Assembly: GCA_963678065.2 (NCBI GenBank) | Contig: CAXXVZ010000005.1 | Coordinates: 64,001 to 128,000 of the forward strand | DNA from: Treponemataceae bacterium | GTDB taxonomy: Bacteria > Spirochaetota > Spirochaetia > Treponematales > Rectinemataceae | Direction of reading: 5' to 3' | Length of the DNA: 64,000 bases | Shown here: piece after piece, positions 33,827 through 50,275 of the stretch | Numbering within the stretch: the stretch's first letter is position 1 | Layout of the letters: every line of letters starts with the position of its first letter | Notes under the pieces: generated by a model | The model's database searches: none | What the model was told of the DNA's origin: nothing | The model's input: the letters and a program-made list of their open reading frames with translations, nothing else | Position numbers and translations under genes: made by a program

Positions 33827-34621
33827 TTAGGCGTAGCTGTGAAGTCCCGAGAGGAGGAAGTTCACGCCGAAGAAGGTGAAGACCGTGCACAAAAAACCGA
33901 TGACGGAAACCCAGGCGGGGAGCAGTCCGGTCTTTCGCTTGATGAAGCGGATGTGCAGATAGAAGGTGTAGATGAGCCAGGTGACGAGGGCCCAGGTTTC
34001 CTTCGGATCCCAGGACCACCAGACTCCCCAGGCCTGCTCGGCCCAGATGGCGCCGAAGACCAGGGCCCCCGCCGTGAAGATCGGGAAACCGACAGCGATG
34101 GCCGTGTAGGTTATGCGATCGAAATCGGGGCGCTTCCTTTCATCCCGCGTGAAGATATAGGCCAGGGAGGCGACGAACCCGGCCACGAAGAAGGCCTCTC
34201 CGACAAAGGAGAGCGCCACGTGGGCGACGAGCCAGCCGGAGCGCAGAGCGGGGATCGGCGCGAGGAGATCCTTGGGAGCGAGAGGTGAGCTCGCGACAGC
34301 GAGGAGAACGAGGGCGACGACAGTCGCGCCGAACTGCACGAAGGGCAGGAAAATAAAGCGCTTCTGTGTCCGGTAAGCGAATCCCATCAGGCAGACGAAA
34401 CCCGAATAGAAGACCAGGGACTCGAATGTGCCGGTCAGGGCGGGGAATCCGATCCTGAACGAGCGGTCGGCGATGACGGCAGCGAGAAGCGCGGCAGCGC
34501 CGAGTAGGAGAAAACGGGATGCAGGCTCTCTCTCCCCTCCTTCCTTGCGGAAGAGGAATACCGCCTGGACTGCGGCAGAGGCGAGTATCAGCAGGATTGC
34601 GATGGTCGGCAGGCTGTTCAT
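33827..34621 (-). CDS. ccsA: Cytochrome c biogenesis protein CcsA/ResC (system II)
   Basis: GAIWAEQAWGVWWSWDPKETW (WWD domain) and C-terminal GLHSYA. Confidence 0.95.
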   Translation of the reverse strand: MNSLPTIAILLILASAAVQAVFLFRKEGGEREPASRFLLLGAAALLAAVIADRSFRIGFPALTGTFESLVFYSGFVCLMGFAYRTQKRFIFLPFVQFGATVVALVLLAVASSPLAPKDLLAPIPALRSGWLVAHVALSFVGEAFFVAGFVASLAYIFTRDERKRPDFDRITYTAIAVGFPIFTAGALVFGAIWAEQAWGVWWSWDPKETWALVTWLIYTFYLHIRFIKRKTGLLPAWVSVIGFLCTVFTFFGVNFLLSGLHSYA

Positions 34622-35553
34622 GGCTTCATGTCTCCGAGTTTCTGGATGAAGGTGAGAAAGAGTCCCACCACGACGAAGATGAGGGCGGCGAGAATGACAG
34701 GATACCCGGGATCGACGACGGCGTGGAGGCCGGTGATATCCGAGTCTTTCATCCCGGAGATGAGGAAGGGCCCGGCCCTGTCTCCGGCAGCGACGCGGAG
34801 GACATCGGTCTTTTCGCCCGATTTGAGGCGGATCACGGCCTTTCCCTTTCCGTCGTCGGCGGCCATGAAGTAGAGACTGGAGCCTCCGTCGGAGAACTCA
34901 CCGCCCTGGTCGAGCAGATGCTCCTTCCCGGCGGAATCCGCGACCGAGAGGGCGCGCTTCGCGCTATGCGAGAACTGGTAGAGGCTCATGGTGCCGAGCT
35001 TCAGGGGATGGTTGACGCGGATGGCGTAGCCTTCCTTCTCGATCTTCCCGTCCTTCATGACGCTCACGGTGGAAGTCCAATCCTTGGGCCGCCCGTCGTC
35101 GTAGGTCTCGTAGCTGAAGTCCGTCAACTCGAGGACGCGTGACTCGGGCATCTCGACCTTGTCGCCGACGGAGAGGCTCACCGACCCTTCCTGTTTGCCG
35201 GAGAAAGAGACGACGGAGCCGATCACGAGGATCATGAGGCCGAGGTGGAGAATGTCGGGACCGTGCCTGCGTCGACCTTTTTTCCGCAATTCGCGTAAAA
35301 GCCTGTCGATGGTGCAGACAGAGAGGTTGACGAAGAAGGCAAGGACCGGAATCAGGAAGAGGATCGAGGTGAAAAAGCGGGAAAATCCCGTCTGCACGAT
35401 GAGTTCGCCGAGGAGCCTTCCGTACTTTGCGGTGTAGGCCCCGGCATCCAGTCCCTGGGGAATGAGGGTCGCGAGGATTCCTGTCAAGGCGAGCCAGGCG
35501 ATGAGGAAGACAGCGAGCTTCATCGATTTGAGGGATTTGAAGAGTCGTTCCAC
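34618..35553 (-). CDS. resB: Cytochrome c biogenesis protein ResB/CcsB
   Basis: SMKLAV, TLIPQ, NLSVCT, LHLG, VNHPL and DPGYPV; GTG start assumed. Confidence 0.88.
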   Translation of the reverse strand: MERLFKSLKSMKLAVFLIAWLALTGILATLIPQGLDAGAYTAKYGRLLGELIVQTGFSRFFTSILFLIPVLAFFVNLSVCTIDRLLRELRKKGRRRHGPDILHLGLMILVIGSVVSFSGKQEGSVSLSVGDKVEMPESRVLELTDFSYETYDDGRPKDWTSTVSVMKDGKIEKEGYAIRVNHPLKLGTMSLYQFSHSAKRALSVADSAGKEHLLDQGGEFSDGGSSLYFMAADDGKGKAVIRLKSGEKTDVLRVAAGDRAGPFLISGMKDSDITGLHAVVDPGYPVILAALIFVVVGLFLTFIQKLGDMKP

Positions 35554-35667
35554 GGATTTCCGCCTTGAGGAATCGAGAGATCGTCGGTGCAAAAATGATA
35601 GTCGCCGCCTCATGGACCTGTCAACAACAATTCGATGATAAAGATAGAATTTTATCAACATATCGAG

Positions 35668-35728: not shown

Positions 35729-36946
35729 ATGAAACGGATGACTGCGCTTGCAGTCTTCGCGCTCGCGGGTCTGGCGGCTTACGCCGCCGAATCGACCTGC
35801 GTCACCTGCCACACAGACAGCGAGACCATGAAATCGCTCTTCGTGCCGCCGGCGATGAGCGCGTCCGAAGGCGAGGGCTGAGCGGGAACTCCTCCCCCGG
35901 TCCGGGCGGATGAACTTTACCTGGGATTCGTCGTCGACAAGTCCCTTCTGGAAACCGATCCACATCTCAAAAATGACTGCACGTTCTGCCACAAAGGCGA
36001 CCCGACGGCTTCCGACAGGAGCCTCGCGCACGCGGGCGTGAACAAGCGTCCCTCCGACGACCTTGCGACCTGCGGGACATGTCACGAGGAGACAGTCAAA
36101 ACCTACAAACTCTCCCTCCACTACACGACAGCGGGCATGAAGAGCGGGGTGAATCCCCGGTTCTCCGGCGCGGAAGCCTCGGTCTACGATCAGAAGGTCT
36201 TCGAGCAGTCCTGTCGCTCCTGCCACGCGTCATGCGGCGACTGTCACGTCAAGAGCCCCACCATCTCCGGCGTCGATCTCGGTCTCATGGCCGGACACAA
36301 ATTTGTAAAGAAAGACGAGTCGAAGACCTGCGCGCTCTGCCACGGCGGACGCGTCTACCCCGAGTTCACGGGCGAATACGGCGGCAACGCCGATGTCCAC
36401 TACCAAAAAGGCATGTCCTGCACGGACTGCCACTCAGAGTCCGAAATTCATGCCAGCTCCGGAGCACAGAGCGACAGGCGCGCCGTTTCCGACAAGCCGT
36501 CCTGCGTGAAGTGCCACGCTCCCGGGACGGAGAAGACCGAAAAGGCGAGAACCGCGCACGCCGACCACGGCGATATGGTCTCCTGTTCCGCCTGCCACAG
36601 CTCGGCGGAGTACCGCGGCTGTGCATCCTGCCATCTCGGCGAAGGCGCTACATCGAGCCCCATGTTCATGCTCGGCGACAATCCGAGGAAACCCGGCCAG
36701 CTCACCACGCTGCGCCTCGTTCCCACGGTCCGCGACACGTTCAAGAAGGTCGGTATCGTCCAGGAAAACTTCGATTCGATGCCCAATCTCTGGGATACCG
36801 TTCCGCACAACACGCGCAAGCGCACCGAGCGCACGCGCGACTGCTCTGTCTGCCACTCGGAGAAGCGGAACGTCCTCACCGAGGAAACGCTCCCGAAGGG
36901 CGGATCCGAGGCCAACAAGAAACTCATTTTCGAGTTCATGTATTGA
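35729..36946 (+). CDS. Secreted 11-heme c-type cytochrome, predicted selenoprotein (Sec51), 405 aa
   Basis: AAGGAGG RBS, signal peptide, CVTCH, then in-frame TGA at 35879-35881 after GEG. The same frame continues without stops into ORF 36038..36946; 11 CxxCH motifs in total. Confidence 0.88.
35882..35912 (+). promoter_or_regulatory. Candidate bacterial SECIS hairpin
   Basis: TCCTCCCCCGGTCCGGGCGGA can fold with a small G-containing apical loop about 17-20 nt after the TGA. Confidence 0.6.
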
Positions 36947-36965: not shown

Positions 36966-37844
36966 ATGAAGAAGCTGTTTGCCATCCTCGTGCTCGCCGC
37001 CTGCCTCGCGCCGGCTGCCTTCGCAAGAGACATCGATCCCGTAGTCTCGGCCGCGTGGCTGGAGTCCAACCTCGCCAACCCCAACCTCGTCGTCATGGAC
37101 GTCCGCTCGGTGGAGAACTACAAGGCCGGCCACATTCCCGGCGCCGTCAATGTCATAGGGGCCAGTCTCTATGTGAAGAAGGGCGAGATCAACAACGAGG
37201 TGCCCGAGATGGATGAGCTCTCGGATACCCTCTCCGCGGCCGGAGTCAAGGCCGACTCCTGGATCGTCGTCGTCGAAACCGACGGCTCCCGCCTCGCCTG
37301 GTCCACGCGCGTCGCCTGGACTCTGAAATACGTCGGGATCGAGAACGTCGCCTTCCTCGACGGCGGCTACGCGGCCTGGACCAAGGCCGCCAAGCCCGTC
37401 TCCAAGGACGCGGTCACGAAGTCAGGCGGCTACACCGCCAAGGCGGTTCCCGCCTACTTCGCGGACAAGGCCCAGGTCCTTGCGGCAAAAGACGCTCAGA
37501 TCGTCGATGCGCGCACCTACGATACCTACTTCGGACTCGTCAGGCAGTCCTTCGTCGCTCAGGCCGGACACTTCCCCGGCGCGTATTCTCTCCCCTACAC
37601 CTGGATCCTCAACGCCGACAACATGGTCAAGTCCAAGGCCGACCTGGCCGCCTACGCCGCGAAGCTCGGACTCGACCCCTCCATCGAGACCATCGTCTAC
37701 TGCGACTCGGGCGTCCTGTGCACCGCCTGGTGGTATGCCTTCTCCGAGATACTCGGCTGGAAGAATGTCAGGAGCTTCGACGGATCCTCCCAGGTTCTCA
37801 CCGCCGATCCATCAGTCAAGTATGTGGCTCTGACCTGGCGCTGA
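36966..37844 (+). CDS. Secreted tandem-domain rhodanese/sulfurtransferase; may extend to 37928 by TGA read-through
   Basis: Signal peptide, GHIPGA, LDGGY, VDART, GHFPGA and active-site YCDSG. Confidence 0.92.
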   Translation: MKKLFAILVLAACLAPAAFARDIDPVVSAAWLESNLANPNLVVMDVRSVENYKAGHIPGAVNVIGASLYVKKGEINNEVPEMDELSDTLSAAGVKADSWIVVVETDGSRLAWSTRVAWTLKYVGIENVAFLDGGYAAWTKAAKPVSKDAVTKSGGYTAKAVPAYFADKAQVLAAKDAQIVDARTYDTYFGLVRQSFVAQAGHFPGAYSLPYTWILNADNMVKSKADLAAYAAKLGLDPSIETIVYCDSGVLCTAWWYAFSEILGWKNVRSFDGSSQVLTADPSVKYVALTWR

Positions 37845-37928
37845 GCCCGGACGGCGACGGTCCGGTACTGCTACTCCTGTCATCACGCCGAGACCCTCGT
37901 CAACTGCAACAAGTGCCACAAGGAGTGA
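37845..37928 (+). other. In-frame 27-codon two-heme segment ARTATVRYCYSCHHAETLVNCNKCHKE
   Basis: Two CxxCH motifs directly after the rhodanese TGA; no ATG or RBS of its own. Confidence 0.7.
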
Positions 37929-37988
37929 GGCGGCCGGGCACTGCGGAGGACTAAAAACTCCAAAGGCTCTGTCACAGAGACGATTGTC

Positions 37989-38022
37989 GATGAGGGGCCG
38001 GCCGCAAAGCCGGCCCCTCATC
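37989..38022 (+). terminator. 14-bp perfect hairpin closing the cytochrome-rhodanese unit
   Basis: GATGAGGGGCCGGC/GCCGGCCCCTCATC; no T-tract. Confidence 0.55.
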
Positions 38023-38063: not shown

Positions 38064-38093
38064 TTGACCCCGCATCCGGAGTGCGGCTAGTAT
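38064..38093 (+). promoter_or_regulatory. Putative promoter of selCAB
   Basis: TTGACC-N18-TAGTAT, 7 nt before the tRNA. Confidence 0.55.
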
Positions 38094-38100
38094 CGCCTGC

Positions 38101-38189
38101 GGAAGCAGACGGGGTCTGGTGGCTCCCGCGGTCTTCAAAACCGTTGGCCGCGCCTTGCGCGGCGGCAGGTCCGATTCCTGCCTCTTCCG
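38101..38189 (+). tRNA. selC: tRNA-Sec (UCA)
   Basis: GGAAG 5' end, 6-bp D-stem with 4-nt loop, anticodon loop CTTCAAA, long variable arm, T-arm GCAGG-TCCGATT-CCTGC; adjacent to selA. Confidence 0.95.
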
Positions 38190-38223
38190 ATCACCATGAC
38201 CGGCACCCGCCGAGGCAGAAAGC

Positions 38224-39672
38224 ATGACAGAACCATCCAGAGATATCCGTTTGCCCCAGATCGGCAGGATTCTCGAGAATCCGGATATCGCCGCGTTTTT
38301 TCCCCTCATCTCGCGTCCTTTGACCGCAAAGTCGGTGGCCGAAACGGTGGCGCGCATCCGCGCCTCAGCCCTGGCAGGCTCCGTTTCAGTCTCCGATACC
38401 GAAGTCATCGGACGCTGCGTCGACGACTGCCGCGCCCTCGCATCCAGACGACTCAGGCCTGTGCTCAACGCGACGGGCATCCTCCTTCACACGAACCTCG
38501 GCCGTTCGCCTTTGAGCGAGGGCGCGTGGGAGAAAGCCCGGCGGATAAATACAGGCTACTCGAACCTCGAGTTCGACCTCGGGGCGGGAGAACGGGGAAG
38601 GCGCGGGGGTCTCGCGCCTGAATTGGCCGCCCTTCTTTCGGGAGCCGAATCCGCCCTCATCGTCAACAACAACGCGGCCGCAGTGCTCCTCGCGCTCGGA
38701 ACTCTCGCCGCGGGTCGCGAAGTCATCGTCTCACGAGGGGAGCAGGTTCAGATCGGCGGCGGGTTCCGCATCCCGGAGATCCTCGCCCTGTCCGGCGCGA
38801 AACTCGTCGAGGTGGGAACGACGAATGTCACCACGGTCGACGACTACCTTCAGGCCCTCGGGCCGGAGACTGCCGCCGTCCTCGTGGTTCACAGCTCCAA
38901 CTTCGCGATCCGCGGATTCACCAGGAAGGCGGCGCTCGCCGACTTGGTCGGGGCGCTCCCCTCCCGCGTTCCCGTCATCGCCGATCAGGGATCGGGATGC
39001 ACCACAGAGCGCATCGAAGGCGAGATCCCGGTTTCGCGGTACATCGCGGACGGAGCAGCCCTCGTCTGTTTTTCCGGGGACAAGCTCGCGGGCGGACCCC
39101 AGGCGGGCATAATCGCGGGCCGCAGCGACCTCGTCGCGGCCTGCGCGCGTCATCCGCTCATGCGGGCGTTCCGACCCGGGAAAACCATCCTGTCGCTTCT
39201 GGAGCAGAGACTCGTCGAGATTCTCTCCGGAGTTCCCGCTCCGGCTTCGCCGCGGGATGCGGCCGGGCTCGAGACCTTCGGCGCGGCGATCCTCGCCGGA
39301 TTGCCAGGGGGAACGGCGCGCCTCGTCCCCTCTGTCGCGTCCACGGGAGGCGGAACGAGTCCGGACGAAGGATTTCCTTCGCGCGCGCTCGAACTGCTTC
39401 CACCGCTCGCCGCGCAGCGCCTTCTCGAAGCATTCCGGCAGGGCGATCCACCGCTCGTCGCGTGCGTGCGTGCGGGAAAGATTCGGCTCGACCTCGCGTC
39501 GCTGCGCGGCGAAGACCCGCGGCTCGTCGCACAGCTCATCATGGAGGCCCTCGCCTCCTGCGACAGCGATGCCCCATCGGGGAAGCGCGCCGACTCCGCC
39601 TGTTTCGACGTCTGTCATTCTTCTCCGCTCAGGGTTGGCGGCCCGGCGTCGGGTCCGGTCACAGGAGACTGA
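38224..39672 (+). CDS. selA: L-seryl-tRNA(Sec) selenium transferase
   Basis: VLNATGILLHTNLGRSPL, YSNLEFDL, VNNNAAAV, IGGGFRIP, EVGTTN and FSGDKL.GGPQAG. Confidence 0.95.
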   Translation: MTEPSRDIRLPQIGRILENPDIAAFFPLISRPLTAKSVAETVARIRASALAGSVSVSDTEVIGRCVDDCRALASRRLRPVLNATGILLHTNLGRSPLSEGAWEKARRINTGYSNLEFDLGAGERGRRGGLAPELAALLSGAESALIVNNNAAAVLLALGTLAAGREVIVSRGEQVQIGGGFRIPEILALSGAKLVEVGTTNVTTVDDYLQALGPETAAVLVVHSSNFAIRGFTRKAALADLVGALPSRVPVIADQGSGCTTERIEGEIPVSRYIADGAALVCFSGDKLAGGPQAGIIAGRSDLVAACARHPLMRAFRPGKTILSLLEQRLVEILSGVPAPASPRDAAGLETFGAAILAGLPGGTARLVPSVASTGGGTSPDEGFPSRALELLPPLAAQRLLEAFRQGDPPLVACVRAGKIRLDLASLRGEDPRLVAQLIMEALASCDSDAPSGKRADSACFDVCHSSPLRVGGPASGPVTGD

Positions 39673-39676
39673 GAGG

Positions 39677-41290
39677 ATGCCTGTCGTCGGGACGAGCGGC
39701 CATGTGGATCACGGCAAGACGACCCTCATCGCAGCCCTGACCGGCGTCGACACAGACCGCTTGCCCGAGGAAAAAGCCCGCGGCATGACCACGGATCTCG
39801 GTTTCGCCCATTTTGCAGACTCGCAGGGCAATCCCGTCGGCATCATCGATGTGCCGGGCCACGAACGGTACATGCGCAACATGTCCGCCGGAGCTTTCGG
39901 CATCGATGGCGCCATCCTCGTCGTCGCCGCGAACGACGGCTGGATGGAACAGACGGGGCGACATCTCCAGATTCTCGAGGCTAACAAGGTTCCAATCCTC
40001 GCTGTCGCCCTGACGAAGGTCGACCTCGTCGCTCCCGACCGCGTGAAGGAAGTCGGCGAGGATATCGCGCGCAGGTTGCATCGTTCGCCCTCGGGGTCGA
40101 TTCCGGGTCCTGCGCAGCCCTCACCGGCGGGAGTAGAGAAGGAACTGCGGCGCCCGGCCGTATGTCCGGTCGACGCCGTGCGTGGCCTGGGTCTCGATGA
40201 ACTGAAATCAGCCGTTCTCGGCGGTCTCTCCCGTCTCGGGCCGCGCCCTTTCCCGACGGGTCCCTTGCTCTTCATCGACCGGGTCTTCCCGCTGAAGGGG
40301 ATTGGCGTTGTCGTCGCGGGGAGTCTTCGGGGCGGTCAGCTGAGGCAGGACGATGAACTCTTCCTCTATCCCTCCGGAGAGAAGCTGAACCTGCGGGGCC
40401 TTCAGGCATACGGACTGCCGGTCAGAGAGGCGCCCGAAGGCTCGCGGGTCGCGCTGGCCCTCTCGCGCCCCCGCGCGGAACCGCGCCGGGGTGACTGCGT
40501 CGCTTCCGCAAAGGCCGGCATCGTGGCAGCGCACTCCGTCTTCTTGCGGACCCGCCCTCCTCAAGGCGAGATGCCGGGTGCCGGCCGCCTGCGCGCCGGC
40601 ATGGAAGTCGAACTGTCAGCGGGCACCGCGAACAGGATCGCGACACTCTACCCATCGCGCGTTCCCGGCGTCCTCCATCTCGCGTGGACAGGAGAGCTCG
40701 CGCTGTACCGCGATGAGACTGTCATCGTATTGCGACATGGAGGCGCCGATATTCTCGCCTCGGGAAACATCGCGGCATTCGGAGGCGACTCGGCTCCCGG
40801 ACGTCGCCGGATCGAAGAGGAGCTGAGACAGAGCCTTCTGCCAACCTCTCCAGAGCTCTCTGTTCCGGCAAAGGGCACGAAGCTGTCCCCGGCAAGGCCT
40901 CTCCAGCGGGAGGTCCCTCCCCTCGCCCCATCGGCCCTCCAGGTACTCGGGCAGCTTCGCTCGGCCGGGGAACCGGGCATCGACGCTGAGACACGGCCTG
41001 TGCCCGGACTTCGCGCGGATCTTTCGGCGCTCTGCGCGCAAAACCTTGCCCTGAGCCTCGATGCGGGCCTGTTCATGGAAACTGGCCGCTACCACATCCT
41101 GACGGCGGCCATCCTCAGAGGGCGCGGGCCAGGCAGCGGCTTCGGCATCAAGGAAGCGAAAGACGCCACCTCGCTGTCGAGAAAATGGATCATTCCGCTC
41201 CTCAATCGCATGGAGAGGGACGGCTATGTCAAACGCGCGGGCGACACGAGAATCGTGACCGGGAAAGCGCCAGGACCTGAATCGGCCTGA
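39677..41290 (+). CDS. selB: Selenocysteine-specific elongation factor
   Basis: GHVDHGKT, TDRLPEEKARGMTTDLGF, DVPGHERY, TKVD and C-terminal winged helix SRKWIIPLL. Confidence 0.93.
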   Translation: MPVVGTSGHVDHGKTTLIAALTGVDTDRLPEEKARGMTTDLGFAHFADSQGNPVGIIDVPGHERYMRNMSAGAFGIDGAILVVAANDGWMEQTGRHLQILEANKVPILAVALTKVDLVAPDRVKEVGEDIARRLHRSPSGSIPGPAQPSPAGVEKELRRPAVCPVDAVRGLGLDELKSAVLGGLSRLGPRPFPTGPLLFIDRVFPLKGIGVVVAGSLRGGQLRQDDELFLYPSGEKLNLRGLQAYGLPVREAPEGSRVALALSRPRAEPRRGDCVASAKAGIVAAHSVFLRTRPPQGEMPGAGRLRAGMEVELSAGTANRIATLYPSRVPGVLHLAWTGELALYRDETVIVLRHGGADILASGNIAAFGGDSAPGRRRIEEELRQSLLPTSPELSVPAKGTKLSPARPLQREVPPLAPSALQVLGQLRSAGEPGIDAETRPVPGLRADLSALCAQNLALSLDAGLFMETGRYHILTAAILRGRGPGSGFGIKEAKDATSLSRKWIIPLLNRMERDGYVKRAGDTRIVTGKAPGPESA

Positions 41291-41973: not shown

Positions 41974-43908
41974 TTACTTTAGGACCGATCTGGCCACCCT
42001 GAATCCGATAGTCCGGTCGTTGTTGAGCGGATTGTGATAGTTGCGGAAGGGGACGCGGGCGAAATCGGGCAGACGGTTCCATCCTCCTCCCCTCTTGACT
42101 CTCATGGTTCCGCTTGCCGGTCCCTTGGGATCCACCAGCGGTTTCCCTGTCAACGCAGGATAGATTCCATACCAGTCGTGACACCATTCCCACACATTCC
42201 CCGTCATGTCGAAGAGTCCGAGCCCATTGGCGGCCCTTGTGCCGACAGGCTTGGTTCCGCCGCCGGAATTCCGTGAGTTCCAGGACACAGCGTCGGCATC
42301 GTCCGAGCCTGAATACTTCAGCACGACAGAGCCGGGAAGAGTGCCGATCAGCCCGCCCCGTGCGGCGAATTCCCATTCGGCCTCGGTGGGCAGGCGGTAG
42401 CCGGGTTTGGAAAAATCGGCGGCGACGGTGGTCCCGGACACCGAGTAGACCCGCGGCAGGCCCGCGAGATCCGAGAGCGCGTTGCAGTAGCCGACGGCGT
42501 TGAACCAGCTCACCTGCTCCACAGGTCTGGAATCCGCCTCGATGCCATTCTTGAAGAAGCTCGGGTTGGACCCCATGATGCTCCTGTATTGGGCCTGCGT
42601 AACTTCGTTCCTGCCGATGTAGAACGCAAGGAGCGTCACGGGATGAACTGGCTTTTCGTCGGATTCGCCTGAGGCGGAACCCATGTTGAAAGTGCCCCCC
42701 TGGACCAACACCATTTCAGGAGTATCGACGAAGGTGTAGGAGACGACCGTGGCCGGGGAATCCTTCCAGCCCGGCTTGCCCGCGATAGCTGTTATCGTGA
42801 CCGAGCCCTTTGCCTGGAAGGGCGACGAGTACAGGTTCCCCCGCGAGGACGAGGGGAGGCTGCCGTCCATGGTATAGCGGATCACCGCTCCCGGAGTGGC
42901 ACAGGACATCGACACGGTGCGGTCAGGCGTATATGTCCCCGCGGCCGGCGAGACAAGGGGGGACGCGACCGTCCCCGTGATGACGAACTCTCCGACGGCG
43001 ACGGACGATATCCGGGAATCGGCCCCGACAGCGACCGCTTTGACGGTTTTCGTGCTTTCGATCCTGAAAGGAGCGGAGTAAACCGTCCCGGTTCCAGCCC
43101 CCGGTTCGCTCCCGTCAGTCGTGTAGCGGATACCCACAACGTCAGAGGCGGCTGCGAGGCTCACCGTGACAGCTTCCTGGAAGGTACCCGGCTCCGGGCT
43201 GAAGCGGGGAAGTGATGGAGGGAGGGCCACCGGCATCCCGGCCACCGGAGAGGCCGGAGCGGCAGCTGTCGCCGGATTCCGGGATGCCTGGACTTCCGCC
43301 TCGTCGTCGAAATTCTTCGACGAAACGCTCGATTCTTTCCATCCCGATCTGAAGGCTATGGCCTTCATGGTCATCCCCTTCTTCACGATCGCGGGTATCC
43401 CGGCGTACTCCATCCCGTAGACGGGGGTCGGTTCCGATCCGTCCAGCGTGTATCGGATCCTGGCTTCAGGTGTCGCGGTGCTGAGCTTCACCATGGTCGT
43501 ACCCGCCGGGGGAGTCGCATCCAGAGACTTTTCGATGCCCGGGGCCGCCACGGTTCCCGTGACGACATAGGTCGCGCTGACAATGTCGCTGGGCTTGCCG
43601 GAGGCGGGGACTGCGATGGCCCTGATAGTCTGGGATTTGTTCACGGGAATCGGCTTCATGTAGGTCTGGCTCTTCGTGCCTTCCTGGGCCGATGGCTCGC
43701 TGCCGTCCACGGTGTAGTAAATTTTTGCCGCCGGATCGGCGGGAAGCAGCTCGACCTTCTGCGGGCTGGTGTACGTTCCGTTTGCGGGCTTGAAGGAAAC
43801 GGCGGGAGGGGCGTCCTTCCCTCCCTTCGCCGTCGCGCAGCCCGCGAGCAGGGCGGCGAGGGCCAGGATAGCTATAAAAGAAAGAGTGGTATTCTTGCGA
43901 TGCGTCAT
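41974..43908 (-). CDS. Lipoprotein with four Fn3-like/CHB_HEX_C repeats and a C-terminal FGE-sulfatase (SUMF1) domain
   Basis: LAGC lipobox; 4x 'I.YT.DGS.P'; RLPTEAEWEFAARGG, GLFDMTGNVWEW, RGGGW and GFRVAR. Confidence 0.88.
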   Translation of the reverse strand: MTHRKNTTLSFIAILALAALLAGCATAKGGKDAPPAVSFKPANGTYTSPQKVELLPADPAAKIYYTVDGSEPSAQEGTKSQTYMKPIPVNKSQTIRAIAVPASGKPSDIVSATYVVTGTVAAPGIEKSLDATPPAGTTMVKLSTATPEARIRYTLDGSEPTPVYGMEYAGIPAIVKKGMTMKAIAFRSGWKESSVSSKNFDDEAEVQASRNPATAAAPASPVAGMPVALPPSLPRFSPEPGTFQEAVTVSLAAASDVVGIRYTTDGSEPGAGTGTVYSAPFRIESTKTVKAVAVGADSRISSVAVGEFVITGTVASPLVSPAAGTYTPDRTVSMSCATPGAVIRYTMDGSLPSSSRGNLYSSPFQAKGSVTITAIAGKPGWKDSPATVVSYTFVDTPEMVLVQGGTFNMGSASGESDEKPVHPVTLLAFYIGRNEVTQAQYRSIMGSNPSFFKNGIEADSRPVEQVSWFNAVGYCNALSDLAGLPRVYSVSGTTVAADFSKPGYRLPTEAEWEFAARGGLIGTLPGSVVLKYSGSDDADAVSWNSRNSGGGTKPVGTRAANGLGLFDMTGNVWEWCHDWYGIYPALTGKPLVDPKGPASGTMRVKRGGGWNRLPDFARVPFRNYHNPLNNDRTIGFRVARSVLK

Positions 43909-44118
43909 GGTGTGATCCTCCGGTTTCTTTTCCATTGTAGCTTCTTCGGAGCGGCACTCAAGAGAGTGTAACGGAAAATCGACAAAAAACCCCGGAATCC
44001 CTTGTGCGCGGACTCCGGGGCATATGGTTTTGACAGTCAGGAAGGTTATCCGTCCTGAACCCTGGCGGCGCACCCTGGCGGCGCGCCCCAGAACGGAGGG
44101 ACGGCGCCCCATAGAGTC

Positions 44119-45266: not shown

Positions 45267-48200
45267 TCAGGGCTCCCGGACGAGGATGAACTCGACCCTT
45301 CTGTTCTTCCAGCGCGTGGCAGGGTCTTTCGGGTCGACGGCGGGCAGCGAGGAGCCCAGACCCGCGACAGTGAAGCGCCTCGAGTCGAAGCCGCGCGCCA
45401 CGAGGAGGTCGCGGATAAAGCTCGCCCGCGCAAGGGAGAGGGGGACAATCTCGCCCTTCTCTTCCGCCTCGACCTTGTCGGCCGGGAGTCCGTTGATCTT
45501 CCCCTCATTGTTCGCGTGTCCCTCGATGCGGATGCGGTAGTCGGGGAAGCGGGAGAGTATCTGGACGAGACGGGAGAGCACCTTCTGGTTCCTGGCCTCC
45601 GACTGGGGCGCGAGCCCGGAAAAATCGGCCAGGGAGGCGCGGAACTCGATGGAAGGGATGTTGATCCTGATCCGCGAACCTTCTCGCACGACGAGGACAT
45701 CGACGGCGATGATCCCGCTCACGACGACCTGCTTGCCGGCAAAATCGCGGATGCGCATGCGGAAAGGATAGTCGCTCGCGGCCTCCACTTTTTCTCCGCC
45801 GGGATTTTTTCCATCCCAGGTTATGGACACGGGAGGGGCGCCGTTGCCGCTCCAGACTCGGAAAAGCCTCTCGCGTGTCTCGCGGGAATCGGGAAGCCCC
45901 TCGCCTGAGGCGGACTCGAGGACTTCGAGTCTCCAGGATGCGACGCGCGAAGGATCGTCCACCGTGACAAGAAAGGTGACCATGTCCTTGATACCGTCGC
46001 CGTCGGGGCTGAAGAAGTCCGGCAGGACGATAACTTCCAGTTTCGGAGCCGCCTCCTCGACGAGGATGGTCCCGCTCGATGCCTGTGCGATATCGCCTTT
46101 CAGATACACGACCGCGAGTCGCCCGAATACCTGCCCCCGGACGACCGCCCCCGTTTCGTCCCGCCCGTCCCAGACGAGGCGGCCGGGAACATCGCCTCCG
46201 GAGCGCCTGAAAAATATTTTTTCCGACTTGTCGGCGGCCACGATGGAGAAACTCCACGACATGATCCTGGAGTTCCTGTCGACGATCAGCGTGAAGCCCA
46301 CTTCGTCCATGAATCCATCGCCGTCGGGCGAAATGGAACTCGCATCCGCCTTGACGAAGACCTTGGGTTTGTTCGTGTCGAGGGAGAATTCCACTGTCCG
46401 CGACTCGCACTGATCTCCATTCGGGTAGGAGACCGTGATTTTTGCCGCGTAGTCTCCGTTCGCGGCCTTGGCGCCTGAATCCGCAATTCCGTTCCAGATA
46501 ATCGACTTCGGGACTTCTCCCTTCCCCGCGAAACTGCGGACCCGAAGCGATTTCGCCATTTCCGGACTCGATCCTTGAGCGGGGGTCGACGGGAGGGCGA
46601 GCACTTCGAGCGCGTAGGATGAGGATTTCACTCTGCTTGTCGTCGTTATCCCGAAATTCACCGTATCGCCCACTCCGTCGCCGTCCGGGCTGAAAACGCT
46701 CGGTCCTACGGAAAGCGATACGGCCTTCCTGTCCGTATCGATCGCCACTTGTATGGGGCGGGAGACATATGAGTGCCCTGCGGCGTCGCTGCCTTTCAAG
46801 CGGTAATCATAGCTCCCGTCGGCCAGTCTCATTCCTCCGGAATCACTCCCGTCCCACTCGAGGAAGGATGGAAGCTTCGCGCCGAAATCCCAGACTCTCA
46901 GAAGAAGACCATCGGAGTTCGACAATTCGCCCTTCCAGAGATCTCCGGCCGTTCCCGTCTGGGTGAAGCGCACCCGGCTTCCCGCCCCGGGAACCGAAGG
47001 GTTGATAGCCTGCCTGTCTGCCTGGATGAAGGCTTCCGGCGGGCTGGTATCGAGGGAGAACCAGGGCGAGGAGGCCTCCCCCGCGAACCCGTTGCGGAGG
47101 GAGAAAACGAGAGTCGCGCGGTAGCGCCCATCTTCCCAGGCCTTCCCTGTGGCGGGATACTTTCCGTCCAAGGTGATTTTTTCCGGCAAGGGCTCGCCGG
47201 TCTTGCCTTCCTGTCTGCGAACTACCGTTCCCGCCGCGTTCCGGACTGTGATGGACCAGACAGAGGGGAGGACGGCGGGGACGAGGCGGGGCAAAAGGTT
47301 TATCGTCTCGAGAATGCCATCCCCGTCCGGACTGAAAATATCCGGATCGCAGAGGAGGCTCCCGACAGGCCGCGAAAGGTCGACGACAAAACTCCCGGAG
47401 AGGGCGGTCGCCACATTTCCGGCCTCATCCATGCCTGAAAGCTCGAGCCGATACTCGCCTTCGGGCACGACGGCTCCCGAGTCGTCCTTTCCGTCCCAGA
47501 GGAATGATGGGGGGGGAAGTCCCTGAAAACTCCGCGAGAAAAAGGCTTTCCCGCCCACGTCGAGCGCGCGCAGCCTCCACTGACTTCCTCCGCCCGCGGC
47601 TATCGAAAACGCGATAGTATCCTTCTGCCCATCCCCGTCCGGACTGAAAACGGGTATCGCATCGACGATGGAGATCTTCGCTTCGGGCGGGCTCGTGTCG
47701 ACCTGAAACACGGGACTGTAGACGACGAGCTTGTAGCCGTTGCCGTATTCGAGGCTCAGAGCCGCGCGGTAGCTGCCATCGGGGAGAGGATCGCCCTTGC
47801 CCGTCCTTCCCTCGAAGGCGAAGGCCTGTCCCGCCGCGAGCCTGGCCCGGTCCTGCGTGGACCAGAGCTCGAAACCGGAGTCGTCGAGAACGGAAATCCT
47901 GAACTCCGCGAGATCCCCGTCCGATTCGAGCCAAGGTCGAATGGCAAGAGAATCCTTCACCCCATCGCCGTTGGGACTGAAAACGAGGCTGTCGATGTCC
48001 AGTGTCGCCTTGGGGCTGCGGGTATCGATCCTGATCCCCTCCAGGGTCCTGGACGCCGAATTGCCCGCTCTGTCCCTGCCCGAGAGCCGCGCCGAATACA
48101 GGCCGTCCGGGAGGGTCGTGCCCGAGCCGTCCCTTCCTTTCCAGACAAAGTCCGCAGGAACAGAGTCGGCCCATCCTTCCGAAGCCACGACAACCCCGGA

Positions 48201-49721
48201 GGAATCGAAGATCTCCAGTTTCCACGTGGCTTCTTTCGAGCCTGCCGCGTGCAGGACGAGACTGTCCTTCCGTCCATCGCCGTCGGGGCTGAAGACCCCG
48301 TCTCCCTCGTACGAGAACGCGATCTCGGGCGGCCTTCGGTCAATGATCACCGCGAGGAAGCCTTCGTAGTCGCGTATCCATGGGCCGTCTATGGCGCGAT
48401 AGATGAATCCCGCGATGTATTCGCCGTCGGGCGCCGCCTGCGTCGCAGGCCTCTTTGCTTCGACCGTCGCCGTCGCTCCCTGTCGAAGCGCGGCCTTTGC
48501 TCCGCCGGTCAGTGTTCCGTCCCAGATGAGGCTCCGGGGCAGGTCGATCCCCGCGTGGACCAGGGCGAGTGTGTCGCCGGCGGGCCTCATTTTCTGCATG
48601 GAGTCGGGATGGTTGTGCGCGATCTCGGCGATGTGGACGAGAGTGCCTGAGTTTTTCTCCCGTACACAGAACTCCAGCGCGCCCGCGTTCAGGGAATGCG
48701 TCGCCGTAAGCGGTATTTCGAGCCTGTCCTGAATCCCGTCGCCATTCGGGGAGATGAAGACAGAAGATGTCTTGTCCGACATCTCCGGCCTGATCGCGAC
48801 CGAAGAACCCCACGCGTAGGAGAGTGATCCGGCGACCGCGGAGAGCTGTCCGTAAAGGGGCTCGTAAGCCACCCTGGTCGAAATTCGCGCGGGCGAGGAT
48901 TCGGGAAGGGCCGATCCTGCGGCGGGGCGCCCGAGAGGGATGGAGGCCGAGAGGCTCAAAGAAGGCAGAAGGCTCCGCTTCGTTCCCGCGCTGCAGTCCT
49001 TCCAGCCGATATCCCAGCCTGCGAGCAGACTGAAACCTTCTCCGAACGCCATGTCGAGCGAAGAGAAGAGTCCGATGTCAGTCAATCCGGGGGCAACAAT
49101 GCCGAGCCCGAGTCCCATCCTGAATCCTTCCCGTCGCACGAGGAGGCTGTGCATGGCGAGTTTCGCGCTCACCACTGGGTCGATACCGATCTTGGGCATG
49201 CTGCGGTACATGCCCAGGGCAGGAAGAGGAATTCCGCCCGATACGCCCAATCCTGAAAGGGAGAATCCCCAGGAAAACTCCTTGAGGAACCCCAGATCGC
49301 CCGCGAAGTGCTCGATCCCCAGGTCCAAAGCCAGGTTCCAGCCCAGGCCCCCATTGTCTCCGATGGCTCCCGAGAGTCCCGCACCGGCGGAAAATCCGGG
49401 ACCGAGGGGGGCAGCGTAGCCGATGCGCGCCGAGCCGAAGGTTCCGAGAGGCAGGTCAGTCATGGAGGCGGGAAGATTGAGATAACGGAGAGAGAGCCCG
49501 AAGCTTCCCTTTTCGCCGCGCAGGCTGTAGGCGAGGGAAGCGACCTGACCGAAACCCTGTGCGCCCGATCCGAAATCGGTCAGGCCGTCGAAGTCGAGGC
49601 TGAGGCTCTGGAAGGGTACAGTCTTCTCAGCCTTCGCGCTCTGGGCTTCCGCGCCGGAGACCGCGAAGGCGATGAGGATGAGCGAGACGAAAAAGGCGTG
49701 AAATGGAATCTCCTTTGACAT
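45267..49721 (-). CDS. Large OmpA-family envelope protein with repeated FlgD/Ig-like domains
   Basis: Signal peptide, beta-rich N-terminus, many FSP(D/N)GDG...WDG...DG.Y repeats and C-terminal IEGHAN...LSLARA...NRRVEF. Confidence 0.85.
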
Positions 49722-49837
49722 CTGCGGTACCCGTCCCGGATTTCTGTATAATTCCAGTATCGGACGAAAATCCTGCGAATAAAAGGGCCGAAACAAAAGA
49801 GTCGCGGCCTGAAGCGGATCGGTCACCGCTTCACGGG

Positions 49838-50275
49838 TCACCGCTCCACGGGGATGACACCTTTCTTTATGATGATATTCGCGTACTTGACCGTCTCTCC
49901 CGTCATGACGACGGCGAAGGCCTTTCGGGTCCGCTCGTAAAAAGCGAATCGCTCGATGCGCGCGATCGCCGGGGCGTCGGGCCAATGCCGGTCTATTGCG
50001 GCCCGGAAGGAAAGCTCGACAGCGGGGTCGAGGGTATCGCCTGAAGCCGGCGCCATCATGACAAAGGGCGCATCGGAGTAGGAATCGGGGTTGATGAGAG
50101 AGAGAATGCCGTCGAGCAATGCGGGAACGCGCAGGCCGTCGGCGCGGATTACCCTCTGGTTGCAGCTGTCGCCGGGAAAAAACGCGTCGGCGAGGACGAT
50201 CTCGTCGCCGTGCCCCATACGGGCGAGAACGACCAGGAGTTCAGGGGAGATCAGGGGAGAAATTCCGATGAGCAT
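49838..50275 (-). CDS. RbsD/FucU family sugar mutarotase
   Basis: [19 protein letters not shown] and [10 protein letters not shown]. Confidence 0.92.

Follow-up and report, generated by a model that had tools for sequence, protein, structure and literature searches.

In the window (the whole 64,000-nt stretch of DNA that was analysed), the reading frame of a rhodanese gene continues behind its TGA codon with two heme motifs. The question raised by this locus is whether that TGA ends the protein or is read as selenocysteine (Sec), which would append a diheme tail to the rhodanese. Sec read-through was at first a serious candidate, given that the sel genes and an 11-heme cytochrome adjoin the rhodanese. 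The sequence-only reading of the window had offered two explanations: read-through yielding a rhodanese-diheme isoform, or the 3' remnant of a small cytochrome gene that happens to be in frame.

The rhodanese, the tail and the surrounding genes

The rhodanese starts at ATG 36966 and stops at TGA 37842-37844. It has a signal-peptide-like N-terminus and a catalytic-type Cys motif in the second domain. Behind the stop, 27 in-frame sense codons with two CxxCH motifs run up to a closing TGA at 37926-37928, exactly as first described, and the tail contains no ATG, in agreement with the earlier statement that it lacks a start of its own. The gene order is ccsA-resB (minus strand), 11-heme cytochrome, rhodanese, tail, selC, selA and selB. 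The features of the locus are as follows:

33827..35661, minus strand: resB and ccsA/ccsB for cytochrome c maturation by system II, oriented divergently to the operon (PF05140, PF01578, TIGR03144)
35729..36946, plus strand: gene of an 11-heme periplasmic or exported cytochrome c (1 + 10 CxxCH) with an in-frame TGA at 35879-35881, predicted to encode Sec
35893..35910, plus strand: SECIS predicted for the 11-heme cytochrome gene, with the loop 18-19 nt downstream of its TGA, near-invariant in 11 aligned genomes
36966..37844, plus strand: rhodanese (sulfurtransferase) of 292 aa with tandem domains (two Pfam PF00581 matches, E 1e-30)
37845..37928, plus strand: the tail, putative remnant comprising the last 27 codons and the stop from a gene for a tetraheme cytochrome c, a flavocytochrome-type heme subunit, with heme motifs 3 and 4; 59-91% identical to the C-termini of intact spirochaete cytochromes
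37847..37865, plus strand: 6-bp hairpin behind the rhodanese TGA, its loop starting 9 nt after the TGA; it fails both the consensus spacing and the operon's own SECIS profile
37929..37952, plus strand: 3' flank apparently carried along with the cytochrome fragment (blastn to locus L027)
37989..38022, plus strand: 14-bp GC-rich hairpin without a U tract (folding z -4.16 for the region)
38064-38093: sigma70-like promoter of selC (promoter scan)
38100..38190, plus strand: selC, tRNA-Sec (ARAGORN; Rfam RF01852, 63.5 bits)
38224..39672, plus strand: selA (TIGR00474, 425 bits, above cut-off)
39677..41290, plus strand: selB (TIGR00475, 225 bits with a cut-off of 242 and a query without its first 7 residues; Pfam SelB-wing_3)
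C3:1583836-1584759 (L058): selD, Cys type, on another contig far from selABC

SelA, SelB, SelC and SelD are thus all present in the host, SelB slightly below its cut-off with the shortened query. The homologues that carry names are from spirochaetes. The hairpin at 37989..38022 is possibly the terminator of the cytochrome-rhodanese operon; a terminator scan made no call there, and the hairpin is partly deleted in runs X5 and X10. In both of these runs 15 nt are missing from 38027 onward, and X5 additionally carries 2 inserted nt at 37969. On account of these differences the spacer is regarded as unstable among strains.

In two other genomes (G012 and G003) a selD-like ORF lies between the rhodanese and selC. 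In G012 (L046 9769-13364) this gap holds what we take to be a cysteine-desulfurase-like ORF, possibly a YedE-like membrane protein, and the selD-like ORF on the opposite strand. Farther along the minus strand of the window are presumably a lipoprotein of 712 aa in which domains are repeated and the end is FGE-sulfatase-like (41974-44112) and a repetitive protein of 1572 aa that ends in an OmpA-like part (45267-49985). Four related rhodaneses (P0162, P0164, P0171 and P0218) presumably have S-layer-homology-like N-termini and would probably be anchored at the cell surface.

An open frame behind a stop is common in this genome, in which TGA is the usual stop codon (1947 of the 2836 predicted genes): at least 27 open codons follow 55% of the 1947 TGA-ending genes. 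The motif pair is another matter. Among the 2836 predicted genes, a set that excluded the rhodanese itself, none has two CxxCH motifs within 40 in-frame codons past the stop and two have a single one, so that the earlier judgement of a pair beyond chance was borne out. Over the whole genome, only three frame segments contain two or more CxxCH: the 11-heme gene, the tail and one segment on C5, which is likely spurious.

An assembly chimera, in which the rhodanese and the cytochrome of two organisms had been joined, was considered since the genome (99.9% complete) is flagged as 6.7% contaminated. Contigs bridge the junction with at least 31 letters on each side in 5/8 runs (X3, X4, X5, X8 and X13), which represent four studies, one of them perhaps the source of the window. 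Strains about 1.5% divergent, from three further studies (X5, X8 and X13), show it on single contigs. The single RNA run in the set, X18, has no coverage at the junction. This refutes the chimera, to which we assign practically no probability: contigs of several studies bridge the junction, which is therefore real DNA of a species. The tail is retained in every strain covering it. Among the at least 29 classified strain changes listed, the two genes have 21 synonymous and 7 non-synonymous ones and the tail a single non-synonymous one (Thr to Ile, run X16), which as one event has no statistical power.

The rhodanese TGA and the TGA of the 11-heme cytochrome

The upstream cytochrome has an in-frame TGA of its own (35879) and therefore provides an internal control for the rhodanese TGA. 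TGA was found in 27/27 of its orthologues in which the site was detected; the remaining 13/40 loci do not cover the site or were missed by the pattern. The SECIS that follows is near-invariant in the 11 aligned genomes, including at synonymous positions. The 11-heme gene thus shows a conserved in-frame TGA with conserved flanks and a SECIS. A search for full-length homologues with Cys, made with its residues 15-130, retrieved four shorter proteins (302-339 aa), none of which spans more than 57% of the searched region, and no NCBIfam model exceeded its cut-off for this cytochrome. From these sequence comparisons, TGA 35879 is likely the actual Sec codon candidate.

The rhodanese TGA was compared across 400 sampled genomes of the order, all from other genera. 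Every match outside the own genome at E ≤ 1e-60 was taken as an orthologous rhodanese (n = 40). All 40 end at the same codon, which is TAA in 24, TGA in 13 and TAG in three. CxxCH was absent within 600 nt downstream of the rhodanese in all 40 loci, five of which had less than 600 nt of DNA and one only 15 nt. It was likewise absent from 120 close homologous rhodanese proteins, 112 of which stop one residue past the last Trp, and from the best 150 cluster representatives; phylum-wide and class-wide searches added no fused rhodanese-CxxCH form. It is the DNA count over the 40 loci that carries the weight here because predicted proteins reveal sense-codon fusions only. The four rhodaneses that are 87% identical to that of the window (P0004, P0128, P0129 and P0130) were compared as proteins.

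Conservation of the TGA as TGA or as Cys in homologues is a criterion for selenoproteins, according to the available part of PMC12013277. Besides its 13/40 occurrence as TGA among the rhodaneses, the codon can be judged from the cytochrome side: in the alignment column that matches it, 21/21 distinct cytochromes have G, A, N, H, S, D, Y, K or I and 0/21 have Cys. No Sec/Cys pair is therefore seen, nor are both sides conserved as one protein, with the tail in 0/40 loci, 0/120 homologues and 0/150 representatives. Judging by the alignment, the position matching the rhodanese TGA is a variable linker residue of the cytochrome.

By consensus, the loop of a bacterial SECIS is led by a G, lies 16-37 nt from the UGA and caps a stem of at least 4 bp; some elements depart from this (PMC13188914). 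The hairpin at 37847-37865, which the sequence-only reading had noticed as lying rather close for a canonical SECIS, does exist; with its loop at +9 and its profile score it is not SECIS-like. Its folding energy does not stand out (-12.5 kcal/mol, z -0.29), and perfect stems of at least 6 bp occur in 231/7500 coding 30-mers. The G-led loop at +9 is the only one behind this TGA; the hairpins at +18 and +24 do not have this G and form only with G-U pairs. No qualifying hairpin was found within the consensus range. Folding energy was discarded as a discriminator, as the true SECIS and the 37847-37865 hairpin are both non-significant.

A SECIS profile was built from 17 distinct orthologous sites of the 11-heme cytochrome. 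It represents one gene family, because a de novo genome-wide coding-score search for read-through TGAs was too noisy, and SECIS of other shapes in the organism may escape it. The upstream TGA scores +36.4 bits and the rhodanese TGA -69.4, a value reached by 94% of the 1947 ordinary TGA stops. The site at 35893..35910 is the only one in the genome above 12 bits. An 8-nt core identical to that of the true SECIS does lie one codon closer to the rhodanese TGA, without a stem; its best score is -26.5 at offset -3, which is matched by 32% of ordinary stops.

Functional Sec read-through would have to be SelB-dependent and to act via a non-canonical SECIS, giving an exported, species-specific rhodanese-Sec-diheme isoform, a recently born selenoprotein. 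CcsBA would load the two hemes, and the isoform would hand on electrons of the 11-heme cytochrome to sulfur or selenium bound by the rhodanese. Several features fit: rhodanese and tail are joined in frame at the stop, with intact heme motifs; selC-selA-selB lie directly downstream, selD elsewhere, and resB-ccsA adjoin; the SECIS-like core is one codon early, and some SECIS of bacteria are off-consensus (PMC13188914); and the junction is retained in strains from several studies. Set against these are TAA or TAG in 27/40 orthologues, with the tail in none of the 40; a TGA column that is never Cys in the cytochromes; the failure of both the SECIS rules and the local profile; and the lack of a fused homologue in the searches described. 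The sole listed strain change in the tail, being non-synonymous, also points this way, with no power at n = 1, and the Sec would fall within a variable linker and not in a catalytic site. The comparison of related loci that had been proposed, in which a conserved in-frame TGA with its tail would favour read-through, has thus gone against it, and a rhodanese-diheme isoform made in this way is now considered very unlikely.

Origin of the tail

No gap is needed to align the tail with the C-terminal end of intact cytochromes that have four CxxCH motifs, and up to 21/27 residues are identical. The parent cytochrome is small, exported and of the PF14537 family, with four CxxCH, and was found intact in 13/400 other genomes of the order. 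A flavoprotein gene lies upstream in 12/13; the 13th locus is cut by the contig start. This partner has a twin-arginine-like N-terminus, belongs to PF00890 (TIGR01813 at 151 bits, below the cut-off of 285) and is often encoded beside tatC. Homology to the cytochrome begins within one or two codons of the rhodanese TGA, in frame, and the leave-one-out score of the tail (85.9) is within the range of intact members (32.6-99.2).

Similarity extends beyond the coding part. By blastn, positions 37866-37952 match the end of the L027 cytochrome and its flank (83.9% over 87 nt), reaching 24 nt past the cytochrome stop, which indicates that non-coding flank travelled with the fragment.

The tail is the sole match to this cytochrome family in the 99.9% complete genome, in which only residues 83-105 of 105 are matched and the rest of the gene was not found. 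For the flavoprotein, tblastn against the genome was empty at 1e-5, and PF00890 gave only N-terminal pieces of up to 53 positions. The orthologue of the AEC transporter of L027 lies on C2 in this genome, with no cytochrome remains alongside. As an own start, a signal peptide, four CxxCH and an upstream flavoprotein gene were not found, the tail is regarded as a remnant and not as a member of the family. It keeps one of the family's four conserved non-motif histidines, which makes a self-contained bis-His diheme unit unlikely; to judge from its residues, the tail alone would hold too few histidines to ligate two hemes.

A structure model of the parent cytochrome reached pLDDT 56, and a fold search with it returned only non-significant matches, to Shewanella flavocytochrome c3 (E > 3); a sequence search found no solved structure related to it.

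The remnant explanation of the sequence-only reading is therefore supported: the tail corresponds to the C-terminus of intact tetraheme cytochromes, the rest of which is missing here. That reading had also named an observation that would overturn read-through, namely an intact separate cytochrome gene at this locus in relatives with a C-terminus equal to the tail. In essence this has been observed: such a gene is present in relatives (the 13 genomes above), although it does not occupy this locus and sits elsewhere in those genomes. An ancestral order rhodanese-flavoprotein-cytochrome was not found in L024-L047, L124-L139 or the order-wide searches. Three genomes (G003, G020 and G768) hold both the rhodanese and the cytochrome, on different contigs. 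In G928 (L137, C1:3104000-3123000) resB-ccsA and tatC come immediately after the flavoprotein-tetraheme cytochrome pair, and no rhodanese or sel genes occur within 19 kb of the pair. Flavoprotein-cytochrome-resB-ccsA-tatC thereby forms in G928 a self-contained module that includes the genes for its maturation and export.

The tail is very probably an untranslated remnant of a separate cytochrome gene. Recombination would have left the 3' end of a gene for a tetraheme cytochrome c stranded behind the rhodanese, whose TGA would act as an ordinary stop. The ancestor may well have held a flavoprotein-cytochrome operon behind the rhodanese, from which a deletion removed the flavoprotein and most of the cytochrome, a route that we somewhat favour; capture of a short cytochrome fragment is a possible, less probable origin. 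The in-frame register would be a coincidence, and the intact look of the tail would reflect a recent origin, as it is present across strains about 1.5% apart.

Some doubt about the remnant remains because of the in-frame join at the stop, the undecayed tail, the selC-selA-selB genes directly after it and a comparison set drawn from other genera. A random break would give an in-frame start of homology at the TGA only rarely, which counts against the remnant. The weight of this argument is lowered because the feature was picked genome-wide for being a coincidence.

Other readings, known systems and significance

UGA is generally regarded as the leakiest stop codon of bacteria. With the tail open and in frame and a partial SECIS core present, a leaky, non-functional read-through (by Trp, or occasionally by Sec via the imperfect core) could give traces of tailed rhodanese without a selected role. 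This differs from an untranslated remnant only in degree, and we give it little credence. A selenoprotein caught at birth was also envisaged, in which the two-heme end of a flavocytochrome recombined exactly behind the rhodanese UGA and SelB achieves partial read-through via a SECIS one codon off register; we hold this improbable as well. If it were true, the product would be a sulfurtransferase that is wired by heme and depends on selenium, so far seen in a single species.

In its arrangement the parent gene pair resembles two-component flavocytochromes c, in which a Tat flavoprotein acts with a separate multiheme cytochrome, e.g., Mrd/Mcc, described in the available part of PMC4427408 as the methacrylate reductase of Geobacter sulfurreducens AM-1. 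The spirochaete pair is likened to it by arrangement alone, and unlike Mrd/Mcc only the last 27 codons of the cytochrome are present in this genome.

Rhodanese selenoproteins (forms 1-5, including NF041203 and TsoB, NF045694) and the Geobacter ExtH (NF040901) have the rhodanese fold in common with the gene of the window, as far as the available part of PMC13188914 describes them. ExtH adjoins ExtKL much as the rhodanese of the window adjoins a multiheme cytochrome predicted to contain Sec. In the known Sec rhodaneses covered by that text, Sec is placed in motifs inside the domain (UxxS, UxxG, CxU, UxxxxU), whereas the candidate U would here come after the last residue of the domain. The rhodanese of the window is also far below the cut-offs (ExtH 53/200, NF041203 32/115 and TsoB 18/805).

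MccSep/ExtKL (GSU2937-2936, NF040886), a multiheme selenoenzyme for sulfur respiration, resembles the upstream gene in being exported and in having an in-frame UGA with a SECIS. It has five heme motifs, in contrast to eleven in the upstream gene (both points on MccSep from the available part of PMC13510729), and NF040886 gave no match to the latter at E ≤ 1. An identity of the upstream gene with MccSep/ExtKL was ruled out by the eleven motifs and the absence of this match; the comparison has no bearing on the tail. No fusion of a rhodanese, Sec and a diheme cytochrome c was found in the literature searched.

As a remnant the tail is ordinary. It is useful as a negative control: the rhodanese TGA, with a motif-rich tail in frame behind it and selC-selA-selB alongside, fails every comparative selenoprotein test, and only 2 kb away another TGA passes the tests on conservation and SECIS. 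Were read-through true, it would represent a rare conversion of a stop to Sec by gene fusion, and not a change from Cys to Sec. The more valuable object is the 11-heme Sec cytochrome with its rhodanese. The sel genes next door likely serve this cytochrome. As the profile finds no second SECIS site and CxxCH segments are few, the organism may keep its sel and ccs genes mainly for the sake of the 11-heme protein.
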